This document shows, one piece after another, positions 1 through 1,000 of a DNA stretch of 1,000 bases. This DNA comes from Escherichia coli (GTDB taxonomy: Bacteria > Pseudomonadota > Gammaproteobacteria > Enterobacterales > Enterobacteriaceae), in NCBI RefSeq assembly GCF_003334765.1, contig NZ_QOWT01000091.1. The stretch is one strand, 5' to 3'. A model generated the notes under the pieces. It was not told the DNA's origin and did no database searches. It saw only the letters and a list, made by a program, of their open reading frames with translations. Made by a program: the position numbers and the translations under genes. Each line of letters starts with the position of its first letter. Within the stretch, counting starts at the first letter, position 1.

Positions 1-1000
1 TCATTGCTGCCATTCATCGCGAATACAAGCAGACATGGAAAACACTGGATGACGAACTGGCCTACGCTCTCTGGCCTGGTGATGTGGATGCCGGAAACAT
101 TGACGGCAGCATCCATCGCTGGGCAAAAAATGAAGTTATCGACAACGACCGCGAAGACTGGAAGCGTATCTCGGCATCAATGCGCAAACAGCCTGATGCC
201 CTTCGCTACGACCGCCAGACTATTTTTGGCCTTGTCCGTGAACGTCCGATCGACATTCACAAAGACCCTGTGGCACTGAACAAATACATTACTGAATACC
301 TGACTACAAAGGGCGTGTTTGAAGATGAAGGAACAAATCAGAGCGCAACTGATACTCTCTCGTCGCCAGTACCAGAAACTGATGCAGTGGAAACGGCAAT
401 TCCGGACAACGAAAAAACCGAATGCAAAGTGGAAGTCGAACCATCTGTAGAACGTGAGGGGCCGTTCTACTTCCTCTTCACCGACAAGGATGGCGAAAAA
501 TACGGTCGCGCAAACAAACTTTCTGGTCTGGATAAGGCGCTGTCTGCTGGGGCTACTGAAATCACGAAAGAAGAATATTTCGCCCGCAAAAACGGTACAT
601 ACTCAGGTTCACAACAAAATACTGGTGCATCTGACACGACCGCACAACCAGGGTCAGTAAAAGTTACCGCTGACGAAGTAAACAAAATTATGCAGGCAGC
701 CAATATCAGCCAGCCTGACGCCGATGAACTGCTTGCAGTATCACGTGGTGAATTTGTTGAAGGGATTAGCGACCCGAATGATCCGAAATGGGTTAAGGGG
801 AACCAGACCCGCGATTCTGTGAACCAGAACCAGCAAGAAACGGAACAGAACGACCAGAAAGCGGAACAAAACAGCCCAAATGCGTTACAAAACGAGCCAG
901 AAACGAAACAGCCTGAATCAGTGGCGCAACAGGAAGTGGAAAAAGTCTGCACCGCCTGCGGTCAGACCGGCGGCGGCAACTGCCCTGATTGTGGCGCGGT
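1..1000 (+). CDS. recE: Internal fragment of a long CDS, partial at both ends (first complete codon at 3, last at 996..998); likely RecE-family exodeoxyribonuclease VIII of a Rac-like prophage, non-catalytic central region
   Basis: Hand translation of the frame starting at position 3 gives 332 consecutive sense codons with no stop, while the other two + frames are interrupted. Codon usage is typical of enterobacteria (GAA, AAA, CTG, CGC, GGC, CAG) and the + strand is purine-rich. The translated segments LLAVSRGEFVEGISDPNDPKWVKG (726..800) and KVCTACGQTGGGNCPDCGA (942..998) match my recollection of RecE. Confidence that this is coding is about 0.9; confidence in the RecE assignment is about 0.6 because it is memory-based and unverified. 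Confidence 0.8.
948..992 (+). other. Cys4 motif CxxC-x7-CxxC (C-TA-C-GQTGGGN-C-PD-C), putative zinc-ribbon or zinc-knuckle within the same CDS
   Basis: Read directly from the in-frame translation: Cys codons at 948..950, 957..959, 981..983 and 990..992, with a Gly-rich spacer between the two CxxC pairs. This spacing is characteristic of zinc knuckles. The window ends 8 nt after the fourth Cys, so the downstream context is not visible. Confidence 0.5.

Follow-up and report, generated by a model that had tools for sequence, protein, structure and literature searches.

What does a small cluster of cysteines do in the middle of a phage DNA enzyme, and does it belong to that enzyme at all? The question is raised by a stretch of 1,000 nucleotides from Escherichia coli (contig NZ_QOWT01000091.1 of assembly GCF_003334765.1; hereafter the window, by which we mean this whole stretch at its full length), which lies within a prophage gene annotated as an 'exonuclease' and encodes, just before it ends, four closely spaced cysteines arranged as two CxxC pairs. 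The first-pass annotation of the window had taken the gene for recE and the cluster for a zinc knuckle placed immediately upstream of the expected RecE nuclease domain. Here we describe the cluster as the core of a module that recurs in otherwise unrelated phage proteins, and we put at roughly one in two the probability that it is a portable Zn(Cys)4 protein-docking module which tethers phage DNA enzymes to a common partner.

On the plus strand, frame 3 is open over all 1,000 nt of the window, and the other two frames are rich in stop codons. Translated in frame 3, nt 948–992 read C-T-A-C-G-Q-T-G-G-G-N-C-P-D-C, that is CxxC-x7-CxxC, and four of the seven residues in the spacer between the knuckles (GQTGGGN) are glycines. 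The Cys4 motif with its Gly-rich spacer is thus borne out by the translation to the nucleotide. The Cys codons occupy positions 948–950, 957–959, 981–983 and 990–992 and correspond to C551, C554, C562 and C565 of the 823-aa protein, and the window does end, as had been remarked, just past the fourth of them, with 8 nt to spare. The 332 codons of the window include five Cys codons and the full 823-aa protein has 12 Cys; when these were placed at random, a CxxC-x(4-20)-CxxC arrangement arose in 4 of 100,000 trials with the five Cys of the window and in 33 of 100,000 with the 12 Cys of the full protein.

The four cysteines are strongly conserved among homologs. A HMMER search with aa 416–641 over 1.84 billion representative proteins returned 78 clusters only, and nearly all of the matches that span the motif in frame keep C-x2-C-G-x2-G-G-x2-C-P-D-C-G. 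When 22 divergent copies were aligned, the two Cys of the first knuckle, the C-P-D-C of the second and the G, V, G and T that follow were invariant, and the G after the first knuckle, the GGG of the spacer and the M and Y of the tail were conserved in at least 90% of the copies. The alignment delimits a module of ~25–30 aa with the consensus C-x2-C-G-x2-GGG-x-CPDCG-x-VMGDATY. Its boundaries are sharp: among ten long carriers, the module (aa 551–575) has a pairwise identity of 81% and no gaps, whereas the upstream linker has 51.5% with 656 gap cells and the downstream tail and acidic linker have 37% and are gappy. All four Cys were also present in 96 of 96 loci that had been found with a pattern written for the second knuckle only. 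Across 28 distinct DNA versions of the module both TGC and TGT are used at each Cys position, and the Gly codons vary widely with no change in the residues. Because Cys and Gly codons vary synonymously while the residues stay, selection acts on the protein. Other searches had a narrower reach, as a first scan of viral contigs was dominated by near-identical E. coli prophages, and in homolog searches with a 178-aa segment and with a 44-aa alignment the matches were all fragments about as long as the query, nearly every one from E. coli.

Many database entries start inside the module, either at Met569 of VMGDATY or at aa 560 (P0150, P0151, P0164, P0166, P0167 and P0175), and the PHROG family phrog_14078 likewise starts within it. 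Because such truncated gene calls split the module, it has been hidden from family models: NCBIfam and PHROGs hold no model for it, and it is seen there solely as a piece of 'exonuclease' families.

The gene in which the window lies is a different matter from what had first been supposed. The NCBIfam equivalog model for RecE, NF007259, gave the 823-aa protein 273.7 bits against a cut-off of 1269, and the match was limited to aa 246–625 (positions 271–602 of the 877 in the profile). Downstream, where a RecE nuclease domain had been expected, aa 642–813 match Pfam family PF16473, the Rv2179c-like DEDDh 3'-5' exonucleases, with an E-value of 3.4e-67, and residues D646, E648, D746, H796 and D801 fall in DEDDh-type motifs (assigned by inspection). 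The profile match and these residues together place the domain among the DEDDh (DnaQ-like) 3'-5' exonucleases of the Rv2179c-like type. In a BLASTP comparison the C-terminal domain had no similarity to aa 592–866 of RecE, whose own C-terminal domain is of the PD-(D/E)XK type, and among proteins of known structure it matched PDB entry 8KEL ('Exodeoxyribonuclease') weakly (E 1.5e-6). Since the equivalog score is far below the cut-off and the C-terminal nuclease is of the DEDDh and not the PD-(D/E)XK type, we reject the assignment to recE; on its sequence, the gene encodes a RecE-like mosaic protein that carries a DnaQ-type nuclease, and not exonuclease VIII. Nor does the motif abut the nuclease domain, as a linker of 76 residues that is acidic (21 D/E against 3 K/R) and predicted to be disordered intervenes. 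This corrects the annotation of a very common E. coli prophage gene. The window was matched in 4459 of 5426 complete E. coli genomes, in 3602 of which the match covers at least 80% of its length, and it also matches the lambdoid phages mEp460, Evi, Tritos and HannyBb and the 'PPompW' prophages.

RecE-like sequence is nevertheless present, and it includes the motif. Against K-12 RecE (exonuclease VIII of the Rac prophage; the translation from NC_000913), BLASTP aligned aa 262–625 of the query with RecE aa 278–591, with very high similarity from ~aa 476 (RecE 456) on, and over query aa 476–625 and RecE aa 456–591 all four Cys are aligned. Genuine K-12 RecE carries the motif as C517-N-A-C520-GQTGGDN-C528-P-D-C531, and the amino acid identity of the module between the two proteins is 92%. 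Its position in K-12 RecE confirms the earlier view that the motif lies N-terminal of the nuclease domain that has been studied in truncated and crystallised form. At the DNA level, the sole similarity that blastn found between the gene and K-12 recE joins gene nt 1425–1867 to recE nt 1365–1765, at 77% identity. The two proteins thus have in common a cassette of ~150 aa in which an SRGEF..DPNDPKWVKG block is followed by a variable Q/N/E-rich linker, then the Cys module and lastly the acidic linker; this cassette is flanked by unrelated N-terminal regions and by different nuclease domains in a clear mosaic junction pattern. The N-terminal 235 aa of the window protein are unrelated to RecE by BLASTP. 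At the other end RecE runs into a PD-(D/E)XK 5'-3' exonuclease, followed by recT, whereas the window protein ends in the DEDDh 3'-5' exonuclease with no adjoining annealase gene; a third type of C-terminal end follows the cassette in P0123 and P0125. In location the two genes are alike, recE lying in an early-left operon beside xis and int as the window gene does. Two 2023 reviews describe the ~560–600 residues of RecE ahead of the nuclease domain as being of unknown function, and neither mentions zinc (PMC11611040, PMC11610958), which agrees with the earlier impression that the motif is uncharacterised in the RecE literature; the sequence strings of the module occurred in no paper of the literature that we searched.

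RecE and the DEDDh mosaic are only two of the carriers. Sequence comparison indicates that the module is portable among unrelated phage DNA enzymes and small early proteins, and it is optional in every carrier family. RecE-type PD-(D/E)XK proteins of other genera possess it (P0154 and P0179), as do adenine methyltransferases of the Dam family (TIGR00571, 251–278 bits against a cut-off of 115, over aa 3–267). In the Dam fusions, which are encoded in early operons of P2-like phages and prophages, the module forms a C-terminal extension at ~aa 271–306 that follows the methylase domain without a gap and matches positions 526–555 of the RecE profile, and the hosts are Citrobacter, Yokenella, Enterobacter, Trabulsiella, Hafnia, Kosakonia, Klebsiella and Salmonella. 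In Salmonella phage SI7 (Peduoviridae) the fusion is encoded in an early operon with the order cox ... dam ... C5-methylase ... replication endonuclease, and a Citrobacter locus has a gene for a stand-alone 182-aa DEDDh exonuclease, followed by dam with the module, a C5-methylase gene and finally one for a gpA-type nickase. Eight of the eleven Dam fusions (L091, L093–L096, L098, L099 and L103) have an acidic tail whose last residue is Phe, in forms such as ..AFDGSEGF, ..AFDDGEVF, ..TFDDLEAF, ..SFDDRNIF, ..ETQEPF and ..YGVEPF. These tails recall DFDDDIPF, which we take to be the C-terminal tip of E. coli SSB, and by this analogy they may mimic the SSB tail. Finally, in small and otherwise unrelated proteins of 79–190 aa the module stands at or near the C-terminus; the gene for one of these is flanked by rdgC and a DnaJ-like gene, in an early region of a prophage that also contains recT, dam and int (L083), and that for another lies between kil and a Mu-Gam-type gene (L085).

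Two neighbouring genes are worth recording beside these carriers. Directly upstream of the dam-module gene in P2-like prophage locus L091, the gene for the 182-aa DEDDh exonuclease (L091:2620-3168) encodes a protein that shares its PHROG families with the C-terminal domain of the window's protein. In L083, the product of the gene after that of the module-bearing small protein P0180 (L083:5537-6541), 334 aa long, has a DnaJ-like pair, CSRCKGHGMIGG ... CPDCGGRGKV, and a weak match to PF00684; this Cys-rich element, distinct from the module, belongs to the operon of early genes that includes P0180.

The distribution of the module is narrow. A scan of one genome for each of 100,044 species yielded 16 confirmed loci, 14 of them in named Enterobacterales. 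The other two are contigs of metagenome-assembled genomes labelled Lachnospiraceae and Proteobacteria, whose proteins have 80–86% identity to the query over the 44-aa module segment, and the second of these carries the module sequence of K-12 RecE. In a phage collection, 48 of 50,697 records carry the module, Aeromonas phages included. In these collections its occurrence is limited to phages whose hosts are Enterobacterales or Aeromonas.

That the motif is a zinc ribbon, as had been suggested, holds in part. It has the double-knuckle signature CxxCG ... CPxCG and its Cys are invariant, but no curated zinc-ribbon profile matched it significantly. A Pfam search with the module gave only sub-threshold matches to generic zinc-ribbon families (DZR, ZnF_RZ and the TFIIB ribbon), the best being DZR with an E-value of 0.007 for the first sequence and 3.4e-3 for any member, none reaching 0.001 or below; in NCBIfam, ribbon_DG_selen scored 14 bits against a cut-off of 130. 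In a profile search of PDB sequences the best match was the N-terminus of MtrI, CEACGRESDTKYCNDCGKVM, at E 0.006, with the arrangement CxxC-x8-CxxC, and the same search aligned the second knuckle and strand of the TFIIB ribbon (CPECGLVVGD against CPDCGPVMGD of the module). The MtrI stretch is a 15-residue zinc ribbon, flexible in the structure and of unknown role, and the protein binds zinc as determined by inductively coupled plasma mass spectrometry (ICP-MS; PMC12774963). Because zinc has been shown in MtrI by this method, a double knuckle as short as that of the module can bind the metal. MtrI (Methanosarcina mazei MM_2401, PDB 9QTR/9QTS) resembles the module both in its mini ribbon of 15–16 residues, CxxCG-x-CxxCGxVM, and in that it is itself small and docks onto a larger assembly. 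It differs in that it is archaeal, has a spacer of 8 and not 7 residues, lacks the GDATY tail and occurs in an unrelated context, and the similarity is probably convergent. With the classical C4 ribbons (TFIIB; DZR and Zn_ribbon_3) the module shares two CxxC knuckles, the second of them CPxCG, followed by a hydrophobic strand, but the knuckles of the module are 7 residues apart against typically 10–20, and the VMGDATY tail is its own. We regard the module as a candidate for an undescribed family of the known mini-zinc-ribbon kind, with zinc binding predicted. The cysteine-rich domain of DnaJ (CXXCXGXG) also has Gly-rich, zinc-binding CxxC repeats; we rejected a zinc centre of that type since the register of the module is CxxCGxxGGG / CPDCG, it has two repeats instead of four, and PF00684 was not matched in the Pfam search.

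How might such an element work? In the mechanism that we favour, the four Cys would form a single Zn(Cys)4 site in which a tight Gly loop connects two knuckles of the rubredoxin type (CxxCG and CPDCG), and this site would hold together a mini-domain of ~25–30 residues that includes a strand and a short helix, VMGDATYxx(M/T)F. In the window's protein the module would then be an ordered bead on a flexible linker, long and acidic, ~77 residues before the DnaQ-like exonuclease domain, and the module recurs within RecE, at the C-terminus of Dam in P2-like phages and on small early-region proteins. Docking would be its function. A module this small cannot enclose a hydrophobic core, so its conserved V, M, Y and M/F probably present a surface for interaction. 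The charge of the module bears on the nature of the partner, since all 22 variants have a net charge of zero or below and no conserved basic residue, and the E. coli module has no K or R against 3–6 D or E. Given these neutral or acidic variants and the acidic flanks, we consider a protein a likelier partner than DNA.

All carriers are DNA enzymes or early proteins of phages that infect one host group, which makes a host hub a plausible partner, most plausibly one of replication or recombination. A more specific form of the proposal is tentative, and we regard it as possible rather than probable: that an undescribed 30-residue zinc module recruits RecE, the DnaQ-like exonuclease, Dam and the small proteins to one host hub, for example the replisome via the beta clamp or SSB. 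Temperate phages of both the lambdoid and the P2-like kind carry the module. The tail Y-x-x-M-F resembles QADMF and QTSMAF, which we take to be the clamp-binding motifs of the alpha and epsilon subunits of Pol III.

Several observations weigh against a zinc-held docking module of this description. First, not all copies are intact. P0142 (756 aa) keeps the second knuckle only, a deletion having joined RecE's upstream 'ANAGGGN' to 'GGGNCPDC', and P0144 and P0148 are three-Cys variants in which Gly replaces the first Cys; P0143 and P0159 are frameshifted fragments that lack the full motif. In the copy of an Aeromonas phage the first half is spaced differently, as C-PELGPE-C-RG-CPDC (C-x6-C-x2...). 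From these variants the first knuckle may be less essential than the CPDCG-VMGDATY half, which appears to be the most conserved part of the module. Second, the distant RecE-like proteins P0139, P0176, P0186 and P0187 keep the SRGEF block and have no Cys module (P0194, which aligns elsewhere in the query, also has none). Because these proteins do without it, the module is best described as an optional insert. Third, structure prediction gave the module low confidence. AlphaFold2 modelled the isolated module, from an alignment of 14 sequences, with a predicted local distance difference test score (pLDDT) of 60, the second knuckle forming a hairpin and DATYQETFD a helix, and a Foldseek search of this model against PDB gave no match with E <3. 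In the full-length prediction (20-sequence alignment) the module reached ~56 against 27–37 in its flanks, values that we read for the contrast between order and disorder only, since the alignment is shallow, the mean pLDDT is 46 and even the DEDDh domain is poorly modelled.

Four other explanations were weighed against a docking module. In the first, which we judge rather unlikely, the module would be a purely structural or self-association element with no external partner, its zinc site stapling the linker or bringing carrier molecules together as homo-oligomers. Most zinc ribbons are structural according to the authors of the MtrI study (PMC12774963), and RecE works as a tetramer, of which the crystal structure represents the nuclease domain only (PMC11611040). 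The RecE nuclease domain tetramerises without the module, however, and a staple is ill suited to an element found at the very C-terminal end of small proteins and Dam. The conserved hydrophobic residues on a module of 30 residues again suggest an interface. That interface could in principle be with another copy of itself; contact between different modules is unlikely, as the two prophage stretches that were scanned for the motif (L083 and L084) hold one module-bearing gene each.

Unlikely as well is a zinc finger that binds nucleic acid, in which the module would contact DNA ends or single-stranded DNA and help to load the attached enzyme on its substrate, a reading that comes near to the DNA contacts suggested in the first-pass annotation. 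Every carrier identified as an enzyme acts on DNA (two types of exonuclease, and Dam), and small C4 zinc ribbons bind single-stranded DNA elsewhere, for example the C-terminal ribbons of topoisomerase I. A finger of this kind is hard to reconcile with 22 of 22 variants that are net neutral or acidic and share no conserved basic residue, or with the strongly acidic linkers around the module, such as the 76 residues after it; restriction to one host group is likewise not expected if the ligand were generic DNA. On these grounds direct DNA contact by the module is disfavoured, and a protein-docking role is preferred.

A redox-active or iron-containing rubredoxin-like centre, or a redox switch that releases zinc when the Cys are oxidised, is very improbable: CxxCG ... 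CPxCG is the signature of rubredoxin knuckles and MtrI, the closest sequence in PDB, belongs to an oxygen-responsive protein, but the loop between the knuckles has ~29 residues in rubredoxins against 7 in the module, which moreover has no aromatic core and sits in carriers without redox chemistry, and none of the tools we used supports such a centre. Lastly, although many database copies are fragments or frameshifted and deletion and three-Cys variants exist, the conservation data effectively exclude, as far as sequence analysis can, a chance Cys cluster or a relic that has no function in a cryptic-prophage gene undergoing decay, as the chance probability is ~4e-5, the Cys are invariant despite synonymous changes, and the module is conserved across unrelated carrier proteins and present in isolated, viable phages, among them Tritos, HannyBb, mEp460, Evi and Salmonella phage SI7.

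RecE/RecT is in standard use for recombineering and direct cloning, and a discrete, conserved and mutable element is now defined in the N-terminal region of RecE, in common with a 3'-5' exonuclease and phage Dam, so that a vague question about this region becomes one for specific experiments. Should the module prove to be a docking device common to these proteins, it would indicate how enteric temperate phages direct several DNA-modifying activities to one cellular site, and it could serve as a small transferable tag for engineering. Were a host hub its target, the module would be a concrete, testable element in the unexplained difference in behaviour between full-length and truncated RecE. 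Interest in it would grow if a common partner were found or if it explained the specific recombination activity of full-length RecE.

Coordinates of the features of the window (nt of the window) and of related module-bearing genes (nt of the locus named)
Feature	Position	Strand	Basis or remark
Internal part (aa 236–567) of the 823-aa prophage 'exonuclease' gene, WP_113344110.1-type	3..1000	+	Open frame; 100% match to annotated E. coli genomes
Helical segment, aa 245–340, weakly similar to RecE aa 278–350	30..317	+	AlphaFold2 pLDDT 81–90; BLASTP
Beta-hairpin and helix, aa 385–435, GPFYFLFTDKDGEKYGRANK..., predicted ordered	450..602	+	AlphaFold2 pLDDT 85–90
Start of ~440-nt cassette common to K-12 recE (gene nt 1425–1867; L001:6722-7164)	722..1000, and ~165 nt beyond the window	+	blastn; BLASTP
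Conserved block SRGEFVEGISDPNDPKWVKG, aa 482–501, common to RecE and to distant RecE-like proteins without the Cys module	741..800	+	74% mean pairwise identity
Variable Q/N/E-rich linker, aa 502–550, predicted disordered, many indels among homologs	801..947	+	25/46 residues Q/N/E; pLDDT <50 for aa 499–549
First knuckle, C551-T-A-C554, then Gly	948..959	+	Cys invariant; next Gly at least 90% conserved
Gly-rich spacer GQTGGGN	960..980	+	GGG at least 90% conserved
Second knuckle, C562-P-D-C565	981..992	+	C, P, D and C each invariant
Start of conserved strand and tail, G-A-V-M-G-D-A-T-Y-(Q-E-T-F), completing the module	993..1000, on to ~aa 580 past the window	+	Invariant G, V, G and T; M and Y conserved in at least 90% of copies
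Dam with module	L091:3179-4144; L093–L101; L103:2143-3126 (Salmonella phage SI7)		P2-like phages and prophages
335-aa hypothetical protein of Aeromonas phage 13AhydR10PP	L102:3458-4465		Variant module, internal position

In strain 118UI the 823-aa gene lies in a lambdoid prophage beside ompW, downstream of dicB and a gene for a DUF1482 protein and directly upstream of xis and int. The helical segment at aa 245–340 and the hairpin segment at aa 385–435 match no Pfam family; together with parts of aa 150–205, which precede the window, they are the sole parts of the protein predicted with confidence (pLDDT 80–90). On the minus strand, a GTG-initiated open reading frame of 161 aa (window 467–952) runs antisense to the exonuclease frame and is most likely a shadow of the long plus-strand frame.

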